From positions 736,001 through 800,000 of the forward strand of contig CM000431.1 in NCBI GenBank assembly GCA_000165345.1: a stretch of DNA of 64,000 bases. Direction: 5' to 3'. A program made the translations under genes and the position numbers. The notes beneath the pieces were generated by a model. The model was not told the origin of the DNA, did no database searches, and was given only the letters and a program-made list of their open reading frames with translations. Shown here piece after piece: positions 25,129 through 64,000 of the stretch. Numbering within the stretch: the stretch's first letter is position 1; every line of letters begins with the position of its first letter.

Positions 25129-25773
25129 AAAAAGATAATTTAGCACTGAAAAAAAATACTTAAACTGAAAGCTAATTGTATTAATATTAATAGATTTTTA
25201 GAGCAAATAGATTAGACTAGGAATTTTGGATTACCTGCTATTAAAGAACGATATTCATCAACCAATCCAATAAGATGGAATTTCAGACTGGGGCGACAAG
25301 GAAGTCGTCATGAATCAACGCAAATTGTCAATCATCATACACTCCAATACTTACTGAAAATGCGAAGACCAAGGCTAATTGAAATTCAATACCTTAGTAG
25401 AATAATAATTTGAGCTCAGTTATTAGTTGTTTCTTCAAAAATACAATATTTCAGAAACACGGAAACCAAATACATCATTGCATTTAAAAATCGCATTTAA
25501 GTGATAAACTCCATCCGTAATAGAGGTAAAATCGATCCCTAAGCCATGGTAAACTTACGAATAAATTATAATCTTCACATTTCATTTAGGACACGGTAGT
25601 ATATAAAATTAATCTAGCTTAGCAATAATTTGATAGTTTGATAAGAGCCTCAGGACAATACATTATGCCGTCTAATTAAACTCGGCGCCCATGTCATTTT
25701 CGCCTTGAAAGAGATTCGAATGATTTGAAGCCAATTCCTTTTTTCGCAAACAACTTTTTATTAGACTGCTATT

Positions 25774-45369: not shown

Positions 45370-47205
45370 CTAAGATCGATTTGAAAGAGTATCCGATCCG
45401 TTAGATTCTAACCTGCTTCTAATAGTTCTTGTATAACCAGATATTTCGGATAGTTCAATTTTTAATGATCTCTTATCATTTCCATATGTAAAATGCAAGA
45501 GAGAATATAATAATAAGGAAATACACCAAGGAAAAACTGTAAGGAATACAAGTGCATTCGCAAGCGCATTTGCATTAATAAGTCTTGAATCTGCGTTCAT
45601 TTGACTTACATTTTCTGCAGTAGTTTTATAACCAAACACATTTTCTGATAAAATCCCTACAACAGGAGCCCCAAATGTTGCGGCTGAAATACCTTCAAAT
45701 AAAACGGCTATGGAGAATACAGTTGCTCTATGAGATGCTCTAACAACATCAGAAAGAATTGGCCTGCTTGCAGCAGCGCCTGCAATTGCAAAGAATCCCA
45801 TTAGAAAAGATAAAACCATAAAGTAATAGAATGATGAAGATTCTTTTGGTATTACTAAGAATAGAATACACATTATTGGAATTCTTATTGCCATGGAAAT
45901 TTGACCAACAAGGGGCCTTCCATGGTCAGCAGAGATGCGATTTAAGCAATCTCCTAGCAACCCCCCCATTGGGCCACCAATCATAGATCCTGCAAGCATA
46001 GTTGCAACGACTAGAGCAGCTTGAAAATTTGAAAGGTCGCAGTATTGTAAATACATTGTCATAAATGTTAGTGAACTCCAAGGTATTGTTCCGCTAATCC
46101 CTTCTAAAATCATTAATATAACGCTTTTTACTATCAGACTTTGAGTGATTACGTTTTTCATAAATTGAAGTGTAGATACGTTTTCATCAATTATATCCGA
46201 AATTTCCTCATTTTCATCATGTAAAAATATTCTATTAGTGTTAAATGTATTCAGAAGACTATCTCTTTGTCCTTCTTCTCGCGACATTGTACCAATAACA
46301 GATTGAGTATCAGAATCTGCCCCTCCAGTATCCGGGCGTGCAACAACGGAAATACTAAATTCACTTTGTTCTTGTTGCTCTAATGGTTCTTGTTCGCTCT
46401 CACTATTTGGATCTGATCGAATAGATCTAAAGCGGTGTAGGTGTAGATGAGGGATTTCATCCATAAGAAATACTATTATTCCTCCTAGTATCGCGCTTAG
46501 AACTCCTACTAAAAGGAATGCAAATCTCCATCCTTGAAATCCAACAATAAGTTTCTGTGAAATCGAAGTAGTCAGAACCGCCCCAAAAACTCTTCCAACG
46601 CAACTTGAAAGTTGTATCATTCCAAATCCTAGTCCTCTATTTTTTGAATTGAGCGTATCTGCTAAAACGCTCTGTGCTAGTGGGCCAACACTACCCAAAA
46701 ATGCTCCATTAACAGCTCTAGTAATTAGCACCTCCCAATAAGAACTACTAAATGCAAGCAATATCGTAACAAACCCCCAGACAGTTACACCGGTTGCCAA
46801 AATGTACTTCCTTGAATATCTATCTGCAAGTAAACCCCATATTGGACAACTCAAGGCAAGGCACAATATCTGACACAGGATAATATTGCCAAGGTCTTTT
46901 GGACTCAATTTTAAATCTACTTCAAGCGCTCTAAGGGATGCTGGAAGTAGTTGTTCATCGCATCCATCTAAAGACGCAGCCAAACAAACAATAGCAATAC
47001 TCCTTAAAGCAATACTATGTAGTCTTTGTAATTCAGATGCCTCATAGAGTTCAACAGATGATCCTGAATTATTTGATAAAGTTGAACAACTACTATTGAA
47101 ATGTTTTAACTTTTTTTTTGAATTATTGTCATAAACTTTTTGATCAATAATTGGCCCTTGATTAAAGGGAATTGATTTTTCTTGAGCATTTTTTTGTTTA
47201 TCCAT
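45370..47205 (-). CDS. Major facilitator superfamily transporter
   Basis: Two groups of about 6 TM helices each flank a central hydrophilic loop (SDPNSESEQEPLEQQEQSEF). An MFS-like GxLaDrxgrk-type motif LLADRYSRK follows TM2. Confidence 0.7.
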   Translation of the reverse strand: MDKQKNAQEKSIPFNQGPIIDQKVYDNNSKKKLKHFNSSCSTLSNNSGSSVELYEASELQRLHSIALRSIAIVCLAASLDGCDEQLLPASLRALEVDLKLSPKDLGNIILCQILCLALSCPIWGLLADRYSRKYILATGVTVWGFVTILLAFSSSYWEVLITRAVNGAFLGSVGPLAQSVLADTLNSKNRGLGFGMIQLSSCVGRVFGAVLTTSISQKLIVGFQGWRFAFLLVGVLSAILGGIIVFLMDEIPHLHLHRFRSIRSDPNSESEQEPLEQQEQSEFSISVVARPDTGGADSDTQSVIGTMSREEGQRDSLLNTFNTNRIFLHDENEEISDIIDENVSTLQFMKNVITQSLIVKSVILMILEGISGTIPWSSLTFMTMYLQYCDLSNFQAALVVATMLAGSMIGGPMGGLLGDCLNRISADHGRPLVGQISMAIRIPIMCILFLVIPKESSSFYYFMVLSFLMGFFAIAGAAASRPILSDVVRASHRATVFSIAVLFEGISAATFGAPVVGILSENVFGYKTTAENVSQMNADSRLINANALANALVFLTVFPWCISLLLYSLLHFTYGNDKRSLKIELSEISGYTRTIRSRLESNGSDTLSNRS

Positions 47206-47301
47206 ATTCTAAACAAAAGAAATCATAATATTTAGCATTAATTTTTATCTTATTTACGCAATAACGATATCGCAAGCATGCTAAATTTTTGCATTTCTGC
47301 G

Positions 47302-48930: not shown

Positions 48931-49938
48931 CTATTCTCCATTTAATCTTATATCTGCGAGGTTGTGATTAACATCTCTGTGATGCGATTCATCTCTTCTC
49001 ATTGCTAAAAATAAATCTCTAATTGTTGCATCCTCTGGTAAGCCATAGTAGACGGAGGCAAATTTCGGGGCTTTTCTCTCAAATCCTGGAAGAAGACCCT
49101 TATCTATTTCCTCAATCAGATGAGTGTATGTGCTTACAGCTTCTTCTTCTAAGTATCCAACAAATCTGTGTGAATATTTTGGAGAAATTATATAAAATAC
49201 CGTGTAAAAGATTAAGAAGGCAAACTGAGTCCCAATTACACTGACCCTTGTTAATATTGATGGCTTATTTATCAGCTGCAGTGATATTAGTAGATGCATC
49301 CTTTCATTTTCAGCCTCTTCAAGTAGAGTATGTATCCATCCATTATCTCTTTTCATTTTTCGGAGTGAAGAAAAATGTCTAAGCATTGCACCAACCATAC
49401 CTGGGACGCCGGCTACTGTTTCCAAAAAAATTATTCTTCTGCACCATTGATATTCATTATGTCCTTTTTTGTACCTAGTTAATAAATCGAAACTTTTTCT
49501 TAATGCAATCACAAGATAGTAAGACATTTTGTCTTTAAACCCATTTGGGCATAAATGAGTTTTTTGTACATTATTAACTTCTTCTAAGTCCCAAATGGGA
49601 GAATTAAATCCGTACTCCTTTCCTTCTAATATGGAAGCCGCATGGTTTGATTTCTTCATAAAGTGGCTTCCTACTTTTTCTTCATTTTCAGCGTCGAATT
49701 TATTAATCTGATCACTTTTGCATTCCAAAGTCCTTTTTTTGGAAAAATCCCCTTGATTATTACTTGACCTATCTTTTTCTAAAGTAATATAAAGCTTTGA
49801 AGTGATTTTCTGGCCTTTATTTGAATGGACTATAGAGCACAAATTGTTCAGATTTACTTTTGAAGAGAGTAGCCAAAGATGCCTTCCATAAAAGTATCTC
49901 AATTTATTTGTATTCGATAGGTTTCTTACATAATACAT
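48931..49938 (-). CDS. AOX: Alternative oxidase (diiron carboxylate ubiquinol oxidase)
   Basis: All four iron-binding motifs are present: LETVAGVPG, ENERMHLL, LEEEAVSTY and RRDESHHRDVNH. The track start is TTG and the first in-frame ATG is 49938. The N-terminus is basic and hydroxylated, as in an organelle presequence. Confidence 0.9.
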   Translation of the reverse strand: MYYVRNLSNTNKLRYFYGRHLWLLSSKVNLNNLCSIVHSNKGQKITSKLYITLEKDRSSNNQGDFSKKRTLECKSDQINKFDAENEEKVGSHFMKKSNHAASILEGKEYGFNSPIWDLEEVNNVQKTHLCPNGFKDKMSYYLVIALRKSFDLLTRYKKGHNEYQWCRRIIFLETVAGVPGMVGAMLRHFSSLRKMKRDNGWIHTLLEEAENERMHLLISLQLINKPSILTRVSVIGTQFAFLIFYTVFYIISPKYSHRFVGYLEEEAVSTYTHLIEEIDKGLLPGFERKAPKFASVYYGLPEDATIRDLFLAMRRDESHHRDVNHNLADIRLNGE

Positions 49939-50205
49939 ATTAATATTATTTAAAAAAAAAATACGATTGTAAATAAGATTCCGCTGTAACAATTTAATAA
50001 TTCAAATACAGTTAGCTCGCGATATTCTGTTGGAAAGTGAATATAGTGGAATCCTCTGCATACTATTAGCAATTTTTAAATGTGAGCACGAGCGGGTAAT
50101 ACATGCATCTGGAAAAAAAAAGTTCATTTTGGATTAGAAAAATCTAAAAATTAATTATAACGATTTAAAAAAAAAACAATTTCTAATAAATCCAGATGTT
50201 ATTAA

Positions 50206-51627
50206 TTATTTACTTTTGTTTGCATGAATGAATTTTTTAAGTTTATTAGACTTTTTCTGAATTATTTTTAGATGGTCTTGAATTGACCTATTTTCAATAA
50301 TGTAAGGATCTCCGCTATTCATTATAAAAGAGTATAGAATCTCATATTCCGTGCATTTCATAATCAGTGAATAGATTACTTGGTCAATTATTCTTATGAA
50401 TTCTTCTGAATTGATCAACTCTTTGATTCTATGTAATTTATCTAAAGTTTTACACTCCAAGACTTTGTTCGTATGAAAAGAAGAATAGCTGCAAGCATTA
50501 AATATTAGGAGAATTACCGGAATAATTATCTTTTCTACAGAATACTTTAAATATGTTAATGTAATTTCGACTCCCTTCGAATAAATAAAAATCATACACC
50601 ATTTTTCTGATATTTTTATTAGCCTAATTAATGAAATAATAATTGGGAATGCAATACTGTTTGTACAATTCCTCAAATCGTTTTGTTTTAATACATCAAG
50701 AAGTAATCCGATAATTCCCATATAAACTAATTGTTTGCATTCTTTTTCACTGCCTTGAGTAATAATTATTCTACATAAAATTTTAATTGTTTGTAACCTT
50801 ATTGGTACGCATTCATCATACATTAAGACGAATATTGAAGGACATAATTCCAATGGCTGGATAAAATCTAATGCTAGACAATCTTGGCTATCTGCCTCTA
50901 CCATTTTAATAATAGTTGAAATATATTTAATACCCCATATTCTCATTGAAATATCGTCAGAAAATATTAACTCAGATATTTCATTTTTTAATTTAACCCA
51001 CGTGTATGAAGCTGCAGTTGGAGAAAATCGAATTAATCCTATTATTGTACGTAATAGTGCATTCTTCAATCTATGGGTTATACAATTATCATTTTGTTTC
51101 TTAAAAATTTGGATTAACAATTCCAATAATCCAATCTTAATTGCAACTCTGCAAAACATTGGTTGTTCTTTTTCGATGAAATGAAATAATATTAATGATA
51201 ACAATTGTTCAACCTCGCTTGTGTTACTTTCGTGATTTTCATTTAGAGTGATTTCAAAAATATTAATTATTGAATATAAAAATGATTGATTTGACAAAGT
51301 CTAATTAATGAAGTTTTCAAATTTATAGGTGATTAATTTAACTTACTTGAATAGTTTCATTCGGGAAGATTCTAGCATATGTTGCAAGTATATGTAAAAT
51401 AGATATTCTGATTTTCATCTAAAAAAATTTGAATTAATTTCATTACTTGCTTTAATTCAACTTACATTAAGCTTTATTTCATCTTTATTATTTGGAGCTC
51501 TGTAAGTTGGAGAGTGCTTTATTAATAATTCAACAGCATCTGGGCAAACTACCTGTGGAGATACAAGCTTCTCGAAAAACCCACATCTTGCAAAATGAGA
51601 AATTTTTCTAATAAAAGATAAATTCAT
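50206..51627 (-). CDS. Three-exon gene encoding a helical-repeat (ARM/HEAT-like) hypothetical protein. Exons are 51627..51466, 51418..51347 and 51300..50206 on the minus strand.
   Basis: The track ORF 50206..51297 starts at TTG, and its first in-frame ATG is 46 codons further in. Immediately upstream on the minus strand lies an AG acceptor (cattaattAG, at 51302-51301) preceded by a GTAAGT donor (51346-51341). The 72-nt exon ATGAAAATCAGAATATCTATTTTACATATACTTGCAACATATGCTAGAATCTTCCCGAATGAAACTATTCAA follows. A second intron follows, running GTAAGT (51465-51460) ... tttttttAG (51420-51419). A 162-nt first exon then begins with the ATG at 51627 and translates MNLSFIRKISHFARCGFFEKLVSPQVVCPDAVELLIKHSPTYRAPNNKDEIKLN. 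All junctions are phase 0. An in-frame TGA sits upstream of the first ATG. Confidence 0.6.
51301..51346 (-). other. Intron 2 (46 nt, GTAAGT...TAG)
   Basis: Read on the minus strand: gtaagttaaattaatcacctataaatttgaaaacttcattaattag. Confidence 0.55.
51419..51465 (-). other. Intron 1 (47 nt, GTAAGT...TTTTTTTAG)
   Basis: Read on the minus strand: gtaagttgaattaaagcaagtaatgaaattaattcaaatttttttag. Confidence 0.55.
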
Positions 51628-51917
51628 CGATATTATTCATCAAAATAAGCTTTTTATTTTGAAGAGACTTAATAATTCTACTCATGTTAATATTTGAAAT
51701 TGCAAAACAAGTTTATCTAATGTAAATAAGTGTGGAAAAACAAAAATTTAGGTAAAGATCAATACCAAAATATTAATAAAAGATTATTCCTATATAATAT
51801 GTTTTTAAATAAAATTTTTAACTTTTAAATTTGTGTGTGTTACATTGTGTGAACAGGAAATAAAGTTTCACATGTTCCCTTACGTTTGCCTTAATAGAAA
51901 TGGTTTAAAATATCACC

Positions 51918-54275
51918 ATGAGGGAATCTATTAACTCAGTTCACAGCGAACTATTTCCTAAAACTAAATTGGGTGCTGAATTTTTACCTCTAAATAAAAA
52001 AGAAAATATTCCAGGAAAAAAAGTTGAGAGTATAAAAAAAGATAACTCTGAAAAAAAAATCAGCGATACTAAAGAAAATGAAGAAATAAATGAAAAAATG
52101 ACTAAAGAAAAAAAGCCTAGCAAAAAACAAGTTCAATATTCTTCATCTGATTCTTCCTCAAATCCATCACCTAGAATTAAGAAAAATTCAAGCGAAATAG
52201 CATCCGACGAATCGGCTTCTATCTATACAGATTCTTCGAATAAAATTGGAAAAAAAATAAATGCAAAGCAATTTTCCAGAAATAAACATGAAATAAAGAA
52301 TGAAGTACACAACATCGGAAAAAAAGTTTCAGAAAGCAAAAAGCTTAAAGTTTCGGAAAATGTCCCTGATGACTTAAGAGCGCAATTTGAATTAGCAGTC
52401 AATAAAGTAAGGGCTTATATAGAAAAAGAATACATAGATCGTATGTGTGAAATCGATAGCGAAAATGCGATTAAATTACAAAGAGAATTAAATAAAATTT
52501 TGCAATCAGAAAGAGATGCATTGGAAAGAGAAAAGTTTAATTTTGAAAAAAGGTTAAGGGAAGAAATGGAAAGAGAAATGCATGCAACTATCGAAATTGC
52601 CGCCGTTGAAAATAAGAAGAAAGCTGATGTTTCACTTGCAGAAATAAGAAAGGATATTGAATCACACTATATTGCAAGGCAAAAAGAGGTTGAGCAAGAG
52701 CTATCAAAGAAGAAAGAATTACTAGAGGAAGAATATTTACGTAAGAGTTCAGAGCTTTCAGATATTATTTCAAAAAGAAAAGCAGAATTAGAAGAGGAGT
52801 ATAATGGCAAGAAAAGTGAATACTTAGAAGGGATTTCAAGAAGAAAGAAGGAGTTGGAAGAAGATTTTGAAGAAAGAAAAAAGTCATTAGAATCCACATT
52901 TAATGAAAGAGCTAGTGCATTAGAGTCCATATATAATGAAAGAATGAATGCATTAGAAAACCAATATGAAGAAAATTTGAAAATAAAACTAGAGGCTGAA
53001 GTAGCCAAAAGCCAAGCAAAACAACAAACTAGCATTATTGAGAAAGAAAAGGAGTTTATTCAAGGAAAGATTTTAGTAGAGTCATTAAAAGAACAATTAG
53101 AAAAAATGACAATTCAAAAGAATGAATTAGAAAATATGAGTTCTAGTACAATCAGTAATATGAAAAATTATATGAAAGAGTTGCAAGATTCTAGTGAGAT
53201 ACAAAAGTCTCAGATAGGAACATTAGAAAAAACAGTTAAAGCTCTATATGTTAAAGAACAAGAGACTATGGAACTTGTTAATCAAGCAAATGAAAAAATT
53301 TCAAATATGATGGATTTGAAAGAAGCAAAAAAGATTGCATATAATTCACTATTAAAAGGTATGGCAGTACAATTACTTGATGAGACTCTGAGAGTGCACT
53401 ATAAACAAAATTATTTGAAAAAAGGATTTGAAATTTTGAAAAAACAAATAAGTAGACCAAAGATTGTTTCAACAAACGAAGATGGGAAAGGATTAAAGGG
53501 AAATGATTTAACTTTATTCTTATTAAGAAAAGAACAGCTTTCACTTTTTGCAGAAAATGAAAACTTAATGAGCCAAGTAGAGGATTTAAGAGTCAAACAT
53601 TTAGAAGAACTTAAAAAGACACAAGAGTCTTTTATGATGTATAAAAAAGATTTAGAGAGAGACTCAAATACAGAGACAAATGTTGCATTGTATGAAACAT
53701 CTATGCTACACTTTGCATATATAATCAATACAAAAATTAGGTTACAAATGGTTGATGCATTCTGGAGAATACAAACACGACCCAGCAAAAGAAATCTTGT
53801 TGAAACAGAGGAGGTAAAGAGGGAAGGTTTAACAAAACCTATGGATCTCAATAGTAGGGACAAGCTATTTGGAAATTTTTTGAGTTCATTATACAGAATT
53901 TCTAGAATAAAGTTGATTTCATTTACTTGGAGAAAAATAGTTCTAAATGCAAAGCTCTCATCGTTCAAAACATTACCTACTGTACCTTTCAAAGATATGA
54001 ATAATAATAGAGGTTTAAATATCGACTCTTTCCATTTAAGGGACTTTATTAACAGTATGGGGAAGGATGGTGTAATGAACTTCGCGCATCAGCCCAACTA
54101 TTATAATAAACTACCATCTGTTATAAATGTACAAAATAAGGCAGTATTCGTCCCTCTAAGAAGAGATAATCCAATAACATATGGAACCTACTTCCAATAT
54201 AATAAGGAAATATTATCCGAAAGCTGCGTTACAGGCAAACCTATGGGTAGTTACGCAAACACTGATTTTAATTAG
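51918..54275 (+). CDS. Coiled-coil protein with a Lys/Ser-rich N-terminus and a central block of 11-residue repeats
   Basis: ATG confirmed. E/K/L-rich heptad and hendecad character runs across aa 150-560. No catalytic motif found. Confidence 0.6.
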   Translation: MRESINSVHSELFPKTKLGAEFLPLNKKENIPGKKVESIKKDNSEKKISDTKENEEINEKMTKEKKPSKKQVQYSSSDSSSNPSPRIKKNSSEIASDESASIYTDSSNKIGKKINAKQFSRNKHEIKNEVHNIGKKVSESKKLKVSENVPDDLRAQFELAVNKVRAYIEKEYIDRMCEIDSENAIKLQRELNKILQSERDALEREKFNFEKRLREEMEREMHATIEIAAVENKKKADVSLAEIRKDIESHYIARQKEVEQELSKKKELLEEEYLRKSSELSDIISKRKAELEEEYNGKKSEYLEGISRRKKELEEDFEERKKSLESTFNERASALESIYNERMNALENQYEENLKIKLEAEVAKSQAKQQTSIIEKEKEFIQGKILVESLKEQLEKMTIQKNELENMSSSTISNMKNYMKELQDSSEIQKSQIGTLEKTVKALYVKEQETMELVNQANEKISNMMDLKEAKKIAYNSLLKGMAVQLLDETLRVHYKQNYLKKGFEILKKQISRPKIVSTNEDGKGLKGNDLTLFLLRKEQLSLFAENENLMSQVEDLRVKHLEELKKTQESFMMYKKDLERDSNTETNVALYETSMLHFAYIINTKIRLQMVDAFWRIQTRPSKRNLVETEEVKREGLTKPMDLNSRDKLFGNFLSSLYRISRIKLISFTWRKIVLNAKLSSFKTLPTVPFKDMNNNRGLNIDSFHLRDFINSMGKDGVMNFAHQPNYYNKLPSVINVQNKAVFVPLRRDNPITYGTYFQYNKEILSESCVTGKPMGSYANTDFN
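52705..52980 (+). repeat. In-frame tandem 11-codon repeats (about 8 units) encoding hendecad coiled-coil repeats
   Basis: The units are KKELLEEEYLR, KSSELSDIIS, KRKAELEEEYNG, KKSEYLEGISR, RKKELEEDFEE, RKKSLESTFNE, RASALESIYNE and RMNALENQYEE. Confidence 0.55.
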
Positions 54276-54378: not shown

Positions 54379-55035
54379 TTAGTTTGAAGAACAACCATTT
54401 GAAAAGCAATTTCCTCCTCCTCTTCTATCTGATCTAAACAATTGAAACCCTCCAGTTTTACCATTATTTTCTGTGCTCATACTGTTAGAGTCCAGCTTTT
54501 TGGTGTTTGGAAGCTTTCTTGCAATCTCCTCAAATAGTTCTTGGACATTATATCCAGTTTTTGCTGATGTTTCGAAGCTCAGTATTCCTTTTTCCTTAGC
54601 GTAGTTACGTGCTGTTTCAGAGTCCACAGTTCGACTACTTTCTAAGTCATACTTATTCCCAACTAAAGCAACAACAATATCATTGTTATTTATATTCTGT
54701 AGTTCTGATATCCATGACTTAGCCCCTTGAAACGTTTCTACATTTGTAATGTCGTAAACCACAATTGCTGCCGCAGCTCCTCTATAATACATGGGTGCAA
54801 GACTTCTGTATCTTTCTTGCCCTGCTGTATCCCAAATTTCGAACTTAACAGTATAATCATCATCAACATTTACCGATTGAGTCATAAAGGCAGCACCGAT
54901 TGTTGGTTCCTGATACTCATGGAATTCATCCTTTGAGAACCTAACTACTAAACATGATTTTCCAACTGAAGCATCCCCCAACAAGACCAATTTCAGATGC
55001 AATGTTTTTGGAGTTTTTATTGCTGTCTGAGACAT
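54379..55035 (-). CDS. RAB5: Rab5-family small GTPase
   Basis: G1 GDASVGKS, the RabF motif [40 protein letters not shown], the NKxD-like GNKYDL and ETSAK are all present. The C-terminus [11 protein letters not shown] carries cysteines. ATG confirmed. Confidence 0.8.
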
Positions 55036-55533: not shown

Positions 55534-56469
55534 TTAATTCACTTTATTTGAACTTACCCAATTGTACGATCTAGGAATAAAACCTGGAATGTAGTTGGAA
55601 TATGATTTCATAAAACCATTGATTTGAGAATTAGCAACTCTAAATGCATATTGAACAAAAGGATCAATAGGATATTTCAATCTTATCAAACTCCAGTATA
55701 TGGAAATATAAACTATACTGATTCTTCTTGTAAGCACTGCAAAGAAAATATAAATTCCCACTACAAATACTTCAAAATATGCTTTTCTTTGATACAATTT
55801 GTTTTTGTTTTTGTTAGCGAGGTCGAAAATATTAATTATTTGAATATTGTTTACAATAGGTTGGTATTTTGATACAATGAATAATGAAGTAATTGCAGGA
55901 ATGAAAAATATCATAGGAAATGAATAGATTAGACCAAAATATGCAACAACCGAAATTAGTGAGTGGAATGATTCTTCAATAAGGATCTTTTGCCAAAAGT
56001 CAATGGAAAGCAATTTAATAGGTTTAATTGAAATATCATATAAGTGTGATCCAAGACCCAGAATGTAAAATAAAGAGCTTATTCGTACAAGTAAATACGT
56101 AAATTTAGATCCACGAATGATTGGAAGGAAATTCAAAATTGGAATTATTGATGAAATCAAAAGTGAAATAGAAAGTGATAATATCATCCATTGTTTGTAT
56201 CCTGTGGAAAGTAATAGTTTTGATTCATTACTTTTGGCTTGGGAATTAAAGCTCGAGAATTTACTCTCTTCTTGATATTTATTATAGTTATGTTCTTTAA
56301 GTTGTATCTCAAGATTAGGGTTCACATTCTTTTTAAACCATTTCCTTTTAAAAGTGGTTAGTTGAGATGCAGATGGCGTCGGGTAAAGATTATTATAATA
56401 TTGCTGCCATAATGTGCTCTTTGACCAATCATATTCCAAAAACTCCTTCTGTGCTTCTTCAGGAGTCAT
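55534..56469 (-). CDS. Multi-pass membrane protein (311 aa), family not assigned
   Basis: ATG confirmed. A hydrophilic N-terminus of about 85 aa is followed by 5-6 hydrophobic helices (LSISLLISSIIPILNFLPII, ISSLFYILGLGSHLY, LISVVAYFGLIYSFPMIFFIPAITSLFIV, VFVVGIYIFFAVL). Confidence 0.5.
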   Translation of the reverse strand: MTPEEAQKEFLEYDWSKSTLWQQYYNNLYPTPSASQLTTFKRKWFKKNVNPNLEIQLKEHNYNKYQEESKFSSFNSQAKSNESKLLLSTGYKQWMILSLSISLLISSIIPILNFLPIIRGSKFTYLLVRISSLFYILGLGSHLYDISIKPIKLLSIDFWQKILIEESFHSLISVVAYFGLIYSFPMIFFIPAITSLFIVSKYQPIVNNIQIINIFDLANKNKNKLYQRKAYFEVFVVGIYIFFAVLTRRISIVYISIYWSLIRLKYPIDPFVQYAFRVANSQINGFMKSYSNYIPGFIPRSYNWVSSNKVN

Positions 56470-58183: not shown

Positions 58184-58659
58184 ATGTGTGTTAATGTGTG
58201 TAATAGTCAGTCTACAACTTTAAGACATGTGATTAATTGAAAAAGAGGAGGTGTGATAATATTAATAAAGTGTAGGTCTATTTTAAGAACCTTTCATGGA
58301 TCTTCCTAACTTATAATCGTAAAGTAATTAGTGGATTGTATTAATTGGGGCAAATTAAGTTAATTCAGGTAATGAGTAGGAAGGGGAATAAGGTCGGAAA
58401 GGAATAAGGAAAGATATTTATTAATTTGGAAGGCATTTGATTCAATACAATTACTTATATTGCAAGCTTTATTTGGCTATAAATTTACAGAAGATCAAAG
58501 ATTCCTTTAAGATTAGTTACTAGTCCAACCAGATTTTTAGTAATAGTTAAAGACATATTTCAATTATTGATTATATATCAAAATAATATAGCTATTATCG
58601 ATCAATTATTGCGTTATAACGCGCATATAGTACTGAATACAAGATCTGCTTACAGAATA

Positions 58660-60687
58660 ATGCATGAAGAACTAAGAATTAGAAACGGCTCTTTAAATGA
58701 ACAAAGGGTAGCGAATATAAATAAAAAAGGGAATTCTGTGTTTTTCACACAGGAGTGCAGTTGTAATAATAGCGAAAATTGTTTTGCTCTGGCTTCTCCT
58801 CATGCGTCTTTTACTTCTATGGCATCATTTGCCCTGTCATCCTCTACTTCAAATTCAATTCAACCTATTGGAAATACTTCTCCTCACAAATGCGAGCAGA
58901 GATGTAATGCTGGAAATGAACATTTGAAAAAACATTGTTGCATTCCATCAACTTCTTTATCATCAACTTCAGTTTCTCTTGGTGAAACTTCTAAGTTAGC
59001 AATTAGTTCCGGAACGAGTAATGGCAAATATAGCATAATAAATAAGCAGATAAACTGCAATATCAGTACAATAATTAATAATAATTTGACAGGTAAACCC
59101 GAAAAAAATGCGCAGAATACGACTCTAAAAGTGGAAAATGGGAGGTATACAAGTAATACTGTTTCAAATTCAAATAAGTCCCATACTAATGGTGTTTGTT
59201 ATTCAAATATTAATGCATTTTCACAAGAAGAAAACGATAAACTCGTAATGCAACAAAGCAGAGATATAGACATAAGTAATGTAAATACCCTGAACCATCC
59301 TAAAGTTACAACTTATGAATGCGAAAATACTTATTCCAGATGTTCTTCAGGTATGTTAAATGGAAATGAGAAAGATATCGTTAATTCATCAAATACAAAC
59401 CCAAATCCTACAACAAATTCATTCTCTGCAATCTCAAAAATCTCAAAGCCTTCAATTTTAGGAAGCAAAGGCCAAATGGTCTCAAAAAATTACTCATTAG
59501 TATACAAACGTTTATATGATTGTCTCGGCCCAGTGATGTTTCCCATAGCTCCATTAAAGGGAATTAAACATCCAAGAGGTGAATTAAAGCTATGGCCAAC
59601 TAGTTACGATAGAGTAATTTCACAGAATTCATCAAAGAGGAAAGTTCACAGATCTTTATGGATTCCTCCAAAAAGCTATGAACACGCATATGTAAATGAT
59701 TTAAATGGCACAGAGACCATTTCTGCATATCCGATGGCATTGAAGTTTGTTGAGGATGGAAATGCGCGCGATGGAAGAAGCATTAAGAGAGAAATAGAGT
59801 GCCACTTATATATATATCAGAGGCTATCACAGCTTCAACAAGATCAGGGCTACGACAACTTGGAGGATGCATGGCCATGCGCAGAGTTAATCGGATATTA
59901 TTTAGATAAGAAGAACCCTGGAAATTCTGTATTAGTAACTAGAAAGCTTTCAGGGCCAGATTTTTTTGACATCATAAGATCTGAACACTCGTCTTCTGCC
60001 AATTCAGTGTATAGCAAGTGCCAAGCTCTTTACGAATATAATAAACTTCAGTGGTGCACACTAGCATTAACAAGAATTGCGCAATATTCAGCACTTGGTA
60101 TTAGGCATAACGATATTAAACCTGACAATATAGTATTGGATTTTTATTACAATAGCACAAATAACGAAAGGCATTTAGACGTTAAAATTATTGATTTAGG
60201 CACTGCCTCCATGCATAGCGCTAAGGATTTCACAGGAGGTACCTCATGGTATGAGAGCCCTGAGCAGAAAATGCTAGAGTACTATACAAAAAAAAGTAGA
60301 GATTTGAAATCAGCAAAGACAGTTGAAATTGGACTTTCTTCTGATTCATGGGGTGCAGGAATTTCAATAGCAGAAGTTTTAATGGGCAGAAGAGTTGTGG
60401 ATAGTATGAAAAGCCCATATGGCCCAGGCCCATTGGAATTTAAAGGAAAAGATGGGTGGCTAATAGAACCTCAAGAGTGGATTGAGTTTGCCAAAATGGC
60501 ATTGGGATTTGATAATTCAAACTGTCCATACAAATATAAAATATGTGAAGAGGCTGCAAAATATGTATTCAATATGCTTGTACAAGTTAATTCAAATAAA
60601 AGAGCTAATATTAAAGATGTAATACAAAAAATGGACTACTTTACTCAAAAGGCATACCAGGCTGTTAAGCAAAAACATCAAACGTGA
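58660..60687 (+). CDS. Divergent protein-kinase-like protein (non-RD, DLG instead of DFG, no canonical glycine loop) with a low-complexity N-terminal half
   Basis: The track start at 58567 is TTG and the first in-frame ATG is 58660. The C-terminal domain carries AYPMALKF (beta3 Lys), REIECHLY (alphaC Glu), HNDIKPDNIVLD (catalytic loop), KIIDLGTAS and SWYESPEQ (APE-like). Confidence 0.65.
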   Translation: MHEELRIRNGSLNEQRVANINKKGNSVFFTQECSCNNSENCFALASPHASFTSMASFALSSSTSNSIQPIGNTSPHKCEQRCNAGNEHLKKHCCIPSTSLSSTSVSLGETSKLAISSGTSNGKYSIINKQINCNISTIINNNLTGKPEKNAQNTTLKVENGRYTSNTVSNSNKSHTNGVCYSNINAFSQEENDKLVMQQSRDIDISNVNTLNHPKVTTYECENTYSRCSSGMLNGNEKDIVNSSNTNPNPTTNSFSAISKISKPSILGSKGQMVSKNYSLVYKRLYDCLGPVMFPIAPLKGIKHPRGELKLWPTSYDRVISQNSSKRKVHRSLWIPPKSYEHAYVNDLNGTETISAYPMALKFVEDGNARDGRSIKREIECHLYIYQRLSQLQQDQGYDNLEDAWPCAELIGYYLDKKNPGNSVLVTRKLSGPDFFDIIRSEHSSSANSVYSKCQALYEYNKLQWCTLALTRIAQYSALGIRHNDIKPDNIVLDFYYNSTNNERHLDVKIIDLGTASMHSAKDFTGGTSWYESPEQKMLEYYTKKSRDLKSAKTVEIGLSSDSWGAGISIAEVLMGRRVVDSMKSPYGPGPLEFKGKDGWLIEPQEWIEFAKMALGFDNSNCPYKYKICEEAAKYVFNMLVQVNSNKRANIKDVIQKMDYFTQKAYQAVKQKHQT

Positions 60688-63470: not shown

Positions 63471-64000
63471 CTAGTTGATAAGATACTCAACAGAAATAAC
63501 TTTTGATTTGTTACCAACAAGGTCGCTATCTGATATAATAGTCTTATCCCCATTCAAAGCTTCTACCTTAATAATGTCCTTGTTAATATCAATGACTTCT
63601 TGAGAACCAATTTTTTCGCGTGTTTGATTTGATGAAATAGGGGCAGATGGATGCGAGATACCCACCAGTTCATTCTCAGGTGATGAAATATTATCTTCTT
63701 GGTTAACTTGCTCAGCGTTAATTGGCTTAATACCTAATGTATGAACAATCCTTAATTCATCGTCAATACCAAGTAATTCTTGGATAATTAATGGATGCAA
63801 AGTTGAAGAACCAATTCTAAATGTATTTGGTGATGAAACATATTCATTGCCAAGAACATCTTCAACTTGCTTGATAAATTCCCTAGCAATATCCAACGAA
63901 CTAACACCTCCTTGAAGTTTTATACCTACTTTGCGCTTCTGTAAATATCGCAACCTATTTGGAAGGATTAGAGTTCCTTTAACAAAGCTCTCATCATAAT
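63471..64000 (-). CDS. C-terminal part of a protein whose N-terminus lies beyond the window end. Possibly an aldolase-type TIM barrel (DeoC-like) followed by a low-complexity tail.
   Basis: The track 'M' at 63953 is TTG. Hand translation of the minus strand stays open to position 64000 (..YDESFVKGTLILPNRLRYLQKRKVGIKLQGGVSSLDIAREFI...FRIGSS...). GIKLQGGVSSLDIA and FRIGSS resemble the DeoC motifs GVKASGGVRTLEDA and TRIGTSS. Confidence 0.3.
   Translation of the reverse strand, partial: YDESFVKGTLILPNRLRYLQKRKVGIKLQGGVSSLDIAREFIKQVEDVLGNEYVSSPNTFRIGSSTLHPLIIQELLGIDDELRIVHTLGIKPINAEQVNQEDNISSPENELVGISHPSAPISSNQTREKIGSQEVIDINKDIIKVEALNGDKTIISDSDLVGNKSKVISVEYLIN

Follow-up and report, generated by a model that had tools for sequence, protein, structure and literature searches.

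The chromosome 3 gene cgd3_3130 of Cryptosporidium parvum (locus tags CPCDC_3g3130 and CPHLJ_3g3130) raises a question of structure: does its protein begin within the long open reading frame (ORF), or do short exons upstream of that frame, separated by introns, supply the N-terminus? The gene lies at 50206–51627 on the minus strand of the window, the whole 64,000-nt stretch of DNA analysed here (30% GC), and 3,422 nt around it are 100% identical to chromosome 3 (CP029782.1) of the C. parvum IOWA 43IA8 assembly GCA_031892065.1, with one base different in the HLJ isolate. The reading that we consider best supported, at a probability of about 0.9, is a nuclear three-exon gene encoding 442 aa, with two short GT-AG spliceosomal introns near its 5′ end.

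Read on the minus strand, the gene opens with exon 1 (51466..51627, −; 162 nt, 54 codons, MNLSFIRKISHFARCGFFEKLVSPQVVCPDAVELLIKHSPTYRAPNNKDEIKLN), whose ATG at 51627 is the first after in-frame stops (TGA TAA, five to six codons upstream). Intron 1 (51419..51465, −; 47 nt, phase 0, 19% GC, full sequence GTAAGTTGAATTAAAGCAAGTAATGAAATTAATTCAAATTTTTTTAG) separates it from exon 2 (51347..51418, −; 72 nt, 24 codons, MKIRISILHILATYARIFPNETIQ), which is followed by intron 2 (51301..51346, −; 46 nt, phase 0, 20% GC, full sequence GTAAGTTAAATTAATCACCTATAAATTTGAAAACTTCATTAATTAG) and by exon 3 (50206..51300, −), with 364 codons and a TAA stop, encoding the predicted armadillo-like helical-repeat body. 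Exon 3 contains the TTG at 51297 at which the ORF track starts the gene, as well as the first ATG in frame with it, 46 codons further on at 51159, which served as the start of an old 317-aa model. Intron 1 runs GTAAGT...TTTTTTTAG, with a clear T7 tract ahead of the AG; intron 2 runs GTAAGT...TTAATTAG, with about 50% pyrimidines in its last 18 nt and no marked tract. Reading through either intron leads into a stop after two codons, a TGA in the exon-1 frame for intron 1 and a TAA in the exon-2 frame for intron 2, while splicing both out produces an uninterrupted 442-aa ORF with no stops and with all junctions in phase 0. The first junction falls between LN and MK, and the second lies in the peptide IFPNETIQTLSNQSF...; tryptic peptides of exon 1 include LVSPQVVCPDAVELLIK and HSPTYR.

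This anatomy agrees to the base with what a sequence-only reading of the window had proposed, in the positions and lengths of both introns and both upstream exons, the GTAAGT and AG ends, the phase of every junction and the choice of the first ATG after an in-frame stop. That reading had also argued that the 46 codons from the TTG up to the internal ATG (51159) thereby gain a proper N-terminus; these codons are conserved in ten species. Its product length of 441 aa needs correcting to 442 aa, and the pyrimidine-rich tract that it saw in both introns is clear in intron 1 but weak in intron 2, whose final 18 bases include pyrimidines at only about half of the positions.

Around 10.8% of C. parvum genes carry introns, with a mean length of 99 bp and a GC content of 22% (PMC4637869). 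The two introns of cgd3_3130 resemble Cryptosporidium U2-type GT-AG introns in their GTAAGT donors, AG acceptors, short length and GC content (19–20% versus 22%); at 46–47 nt they are shorter than the reported 99-bp mean (PMC4637869) and otherwise unremarkable. Donor, AG acceptor, restoration of the frame, and a position and phase that are conserved while the length drifts all fit the U2-type class, the pyrimidine tract being clear in intron 1 (T7) and weak in intron 2. A check for branch points returned TTAAT-like and CTNAT-like strings near the intron 3′ ends, which at ~20% GC are indistinguishable from chance.

Part of the public record already contains this gene model. The exact 442-aa product is deposited at NCBI as WKS77062.1 (CPCDC_3g3130, IOWA 43IA8) and KAL5369667.1 (CPHLJ_3g3130, HLJ); the sequence-only translation is identical to both residue for residue, and both genes occupy a 1,422-nt range that is base-identical to 50206–51627 of the window, so that neither in product nor in span do they differ from the three-exon model. 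Because the HLJ annotation was transferred from that of 43IA8 (PMC12092579), the two entries are not independent. Deposited proteins of C. hominis (CHM_3g3130, 442 aa), C. meleagridis UKMEL1 (POM84286.1, 442 aa) and C. canis (445 aa) share this architecture; in C. meleagridis and C. canis, adding our intron lengths to the length of the coding sequence gives exactly the deposited gene range. The protein cluster included no sequence from Logan or another transcript-derived source that spans the junctions.

We reconstructed the locus in ten Cryptosporidium genomes, namely C. parvum, C. meleagridis, C. canis, C. ubiquitum, C. felis, C. ryanae, C. bovis, chipmunk genotype I, a Logan-assembly species and GCA_001865355.1, which we take to be C. 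andersoni. Searches by tblastn with the C. parvum exon-1 peptide found ATG-initial matches in all eight other intestinal species (E 1e-13 to 3e-28), and those with the exon-2 peptide likewise gave matches in 8/8 (E 1e-5 to 7e-12); the matches to both exons sit upstream of the annotated starts, in relative frames that vary between species. In all ten, C. andersoni included, exon 1 comprises 50–55 codons and starts with an ATG preceded by an in-frame stop, and exon 2 comprises exactly 24 codons ending in TIQ, TIR, TII or TVQ. Intron 1 ranges from 47 to 123 nt and intron 2 from 41 to 66 nt, and all 20 introns are GT..AG, in phase 0 and located at the same codon boundaries, with GTAAGT, GTGAGT, GTGCGT or GTATGT as donors. 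The intron lengths cover every class modulo 3, read-through meets stops in every species, and the spliced ORFs (439–449 aa) are free of internal stops. A scan of 1.84 billion representative proteins added the exon-1 ORFs of further species, called prokaryote-style as stand-alone proteins of 36–74 aa, each of which runs into V-S, the translation of GTAAGT.

Substitution patterns point the same way. Relative to C. parvum, dN/dS is 0.12–0.67 for exon 1, 0.08–0.27 for exon 2 and 0.07–0.13 for exon 3, where the exon-1 value of 0.67 comes from the closest pair, C. parvum and C. meleagridis, with 15 differences, and is weak on its own. Amino-acid identity to the distant species is similar for exon 1 (48–59%) and exon 3 (51–67%), and that of exon 2 is 54–96% across the ten species; differences in the exons are biased to third codon positions, and the indels in exon 1 are multiples of three. 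Judged by these sequences, exons 1 and 2 are under purifying selection at the protein level, and the loci are conserved in the way expected of coding exons with non-coding introns between them, indicating that the two introns are real and conserved across the genus.

Many deposited models nevertheless omit these exons. Those of C. ubiquitum, C. felis, C. bovis, chipmunk genotype I and C. andersoni (313–354 aa) lack exons 1 and 2, both of which are present in the DNA of the species concerned. The sequence-only reading had held that orthologues starting at the internal ATG would speak against it, and models of 313–323 aa from C. parvum Iowa II, C. hominis UdeA01, chipmunk genotype I, C. felis and C. 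bovis do literally start at this Met; since the corresponding genomes do contain the upstream exons, these starts are best regarded as annotation truncations. Its further claim, that ORF-based annotation misses the gene model, holds for the 2004 Iowa II annotation (317 aa) and for prokaryote-style calls (363 aa), but not for the newer eukaryotic annotations. In C. ryanae, a 367-aa model (MKILSNQ...) starts inside the 3′ end of intron 2 (…TTTATGAAG|ATT…; locus L004, 2999–3009).

The alternatives that survive best make use of an ATG at 51418, which in C. parvum and C. meleagridis is exactly the first codon of exon 2. A 388-aa protein starting there has been deposited for C. parvum IOWA-ATCC (QOY42668.1, CPATCC_001332, ‘Armadillo-type fold protein’) and C. 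meleagridis (cmbei_3003130); QOY42668.1 has intron 2 and exon 3 in common with the three-exon model but begins with exon 2, so that the 54 codons of exon 1 are missing from it. Of the ten loci that we reconstructed, only those of these two species have the ATG, the other eight carrying AGG, AAA, AGA or AAG (K or R) in its place, and the deposited C. hominis protein (CHM_3g3130) also has M at this position. It is conceivable, though we consider it improbable, that a K/R codon changed to ATG in the lineage of C. parvum, C. hominis and C. meleagridis, allowing two isoforms: 442 aa would be made from the fully spliced mRNA, and 388 aa either from transcripts retaining intron 1, in which the exon-1 ORF stops at the intronic TGA, or from transcripts starting inside intron 1. 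If true, this would explain why the IOWA-ATCC model starts at exon 2, and the choice of N-terminus would be switched, in this lineage, by whether intron 1 is retained.

Slightly less probable still, in our view, is that 388 aa is the whole product, with only intron 2 interrupting the coding sequence, translation starting at 51418, and exon 1 serving as 5′ UTR or as an upstream ORF, or not being transcribed with the gene at all. The model comes from a manually curated, RNA-seq-guided annotation (PMC8744675), and it is the sole one-intron, ATG-initiated path in the real sequence. Against it stand the eight of ten species that lack its start codon, the protein-level conservation of exon 1 as far as C. 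andersoni, complete with ATG, adjoining donor and a dN/dS below 1, and the phase-0 connection from exon 1 to exon 2 in every species. Introns in the IOWA-ATCC annotation are reported to be 100% supported by RNA-seq (PMC8744675), and intron 2 is required by its 388-aa protein, which lends indirect RNA support to intron 2. Since QOY42668.1 omits exon 1, its curators may have lacked RNA-seq junction support for intron 1, and this omission is the main remaining doubt about intron 1 in C. parvum, where the case for its splicing comes from conservation.

Models that skip exon 2 are very unlikely to describe the main product. Two such models are in GenBank, one of 398 aa from C. tyzzeri (CTYZ_00003036) and one of 371 aa from C. 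hominis 30976 (PPS93821.1); they call for a single 165-nt intron that leads from exon 1 straight to exon 3 and an extra, in-frame intron of 60 nt that removes SNTSEVEQLLSLILFHFIEKE from within exon 3. Skipping preserves the frame, exon 2 being 72 nt long and both introns in phase 0, and for this reason it could occur occasionally as an alternative event. Yet exon 2 is kept at 24 codons in 10/10 species, with 54–96% identity and a dN/dS of 0.08–0.27, and the 60-nt segment is conserved coding sequence throughout the genus (consensus TSExEQLLSLIxFHFIExEQPM), so that its removal costs 20 residues; the same family of models also includes an obviously wrong 702-aa fusion with the neighbouring alternative oxidase. 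These fusions, C. hominis OLQ17138.1 and PPA65149.1, span 48931–51627 (−) of the window and pulled two unrelated families into one 90%-identity protein cluster.

The view that there are no introns at all, with a single exon from the ATG at 51159 and the upstream ORFs and GTAAGT hexamers arising by chance in AT-rich DNA, is in line with the 313–323-aa models of several species and with a lack of GTAAGT enrichment in the window, but the comparative data effectively refute it, because protein-level conservation in 10/10 species extends over both upstream exons and the 46 codons from TTG to ATG, intron positions and splice dinucleotides are kept in 20/20, and shuffled sequence does not reproduce the arrangement. 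The 317-aa Iowa II protein of 2004 (XP_626867.1/EAK89021.1), which takes this form, has the same C-terminal 317 residues and lacks 125 N-terminal ones. For the shuffles, we permuted the 617 nt upstream of exon 3 (5,000 dinucleotide shuffles) with the acceptor AG held fixed; an ATG-initiated path with two introns appeared in 0/5,000 and one with a single intron in 4/5,000. GTAAGT occurs 20 times in the window against 22.7 expected, and its enrichment was dropped as evidence for introns. The hexamer alone is uninformative, and the two-intron arrangement is informative.

Taken together, the ATG of exon 2 is unconserved while exon 1 is conserved, skipping would delete conserved stretches and the 317-aa model ignores 125 conserved residues, which leaves the 442-aa, three-exon model the best supported; the 388-aa IOWA-ATCC and 317-aa Iowa II models are, on this comparison, probably truncated at the N-terminus. 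Under the three-exon model, a pre-mRNA would presumably be transcribed from the 290-nt intergenic region (51628..51917) common to cgd3_3130 and a divergently transcribed gene of 785 aa (51918–54275, +), which is present at all orthologous loci; the promoter and 5′ UTR of cgd3_3130 are presumed to lie within this region. The spliceosome would then excise the 47-nt and 46-nt introns, a step that we infer for C. parvum RNA, especially for intron 1, and translation from the ATG at 51627 would yield a genus-restricted, all-helical, armadillo-like repeat protein of 442 aa.

We also scanned the rest of the window for introns. A loose search that joined open frames through possible donors and acceptors returned many chance matches and did not discriminate, and a strict GTAAGT donor adjoining a long ORF, within the same scan, recovered intron 2 of cgd3_3130 only. 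The 46-codon ATG-less N-terminus of the cgd3_3130 ORF is the longest among the non-ATG ORFs of the window. The assertion that every other gene here is single-exon was not established; the loose scan raised a few candidates. Two GTAAGT hexamers at 25349 and 25553 (−), upstream of a GTG-initiated ORF of 2,427 aa, were rejected as introns because the translated region contains nothing resembling coherent exons and an ATG is available at codon 7 of the ORF. A 49-nt candidate at 47257–47209 (−), GTAAAT...TCTTTTGTTTAG, stops one codon short of the ATG of an MFS sugar transporter, and its removal would connect a 25-codon open frame in phase 0 with the transporter ORF (45370–47205); it may be due to chance or be a 5′-UTR intron, as the MFS orthologues of 608–615 aa fit a single exon.

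Three further genes are of note in this respect. A 160-aa ORF at 63471–63953 (−), with no ATG and no Pfam hit, may belong, as a downstream exon, to a gene that begins past the edge of the window, which, if so, would contradict the single-exon assertion. In the protein-kinase ORF at 58567–60687 (+), 31 codons precede the first ATG and the Pfam match covers kinase profile positions 116–259 only, so that a single ORF may describe its 5′ end incompletely. The Ras/Rab-like GTPase at 54379–55035 (−) is a single ORF of 218 aa, with counterparts of 215–219 aa in C. canis, C. ryanae and C. andersoni, and the C. meleagridis UKMEL1 annotation has a 518-aa product at this locus. That product probably joins an upstream 311-aa ORF (55534–56469, −), which has no Pfam hit, to the GTPase through a GTAAGT at 55557–55552 (−) located just ahead of the stop of the 311-aa ORF.

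The ORF immediately downstream of cgd3_3130 encodes an alternative oxidase (48931–49992, −; Pfam AOX E=1.5e-88). Comparing the oxidase loci (48931–49938, −, of the window, L002 4349–5322, L003 4412–4945, and the downstream gaps of L004 and L005), we observed an intact gene downstream in C. parvum, C. meleagridis, chipmunk genotype I, C. canis and the Logan species. In C. ubiquitum there are four frame-shifted pieces and in C. felis a relic with 27% identity, and in C. ryanae and C. bovis the gap of ~760 nt that precedes Ssl1 contains no oxidase gene. It looks as if the alternative oxidase has been lost repeatedly within Cryptosporidium.

The best matches of the spliced cgd3_3130 product are confined to Cryptosporidium, and no homologue outside the genus was found among 1.84 billion representative proteins. 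Pfam searches gave no Arm or HEAT domain reaching threshold, the best hit being RTP1_C1 at E=0.095, below the cutoff, and a profile search of PDB sequences matched the ZYG11B armadillo domain (E=0.003) and SPAG6 weakly. An AlphaFold2 model from a nine-sequence alignment is all-helical with a mean pLDDT of 69, exceeding 85 only in residues ~300–440; over residues 1–120 it is 50–63, which made the model unusable as a test of whether exons 1 and 2 complete a repeat. Foldseek returned designed armadillo-repeat proteins, importin-alpha and SPAG6 with a probability of 1.00 and E~1e-6, at TM-scores of 0.27–0.40 and an rmsd of 12–17 Å. In being an all-helical repeat, the model resembles armadillo-repeat proteins such as importin-alpha, SPAG6/PF16 and ZYG11B, but differs from them in having no Pfam Arm or HEAT match and in TM-scores of only 0.27–0.40. 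The model suggests an armadillo-like product, which is in keeping with the depositors’ name ‘Armadillo-type fold protein’ and adds nothing to it, and a role as a protein-binding scaffold is the most that could be inferred from it. A literature search for cgd3_3130 returned no papers, its sole mention being a row in a dN/dS table in the Isaza 2015 supplement.

The 442-aa, three-exon model is already public and brings no new mechanism or biology; the value of the analysis lies in choosing between conflicting annotations (317, 388, 442 and 371/398 aa, and the 702-aa fusion). It also flags as truncated the orthologue models of at least six species (C. ubiquitum, C. felis, C. bovis, C. ryanae, chipmunk genotype I and C. 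andersoni), and the correct N-terminus is relevant to tagging, knockout or expression of the cgd3_3130 protein. More broadly, the locus illustrates a general weakness in the annotation of short 5′ exons in compact apicomplexan genomes.
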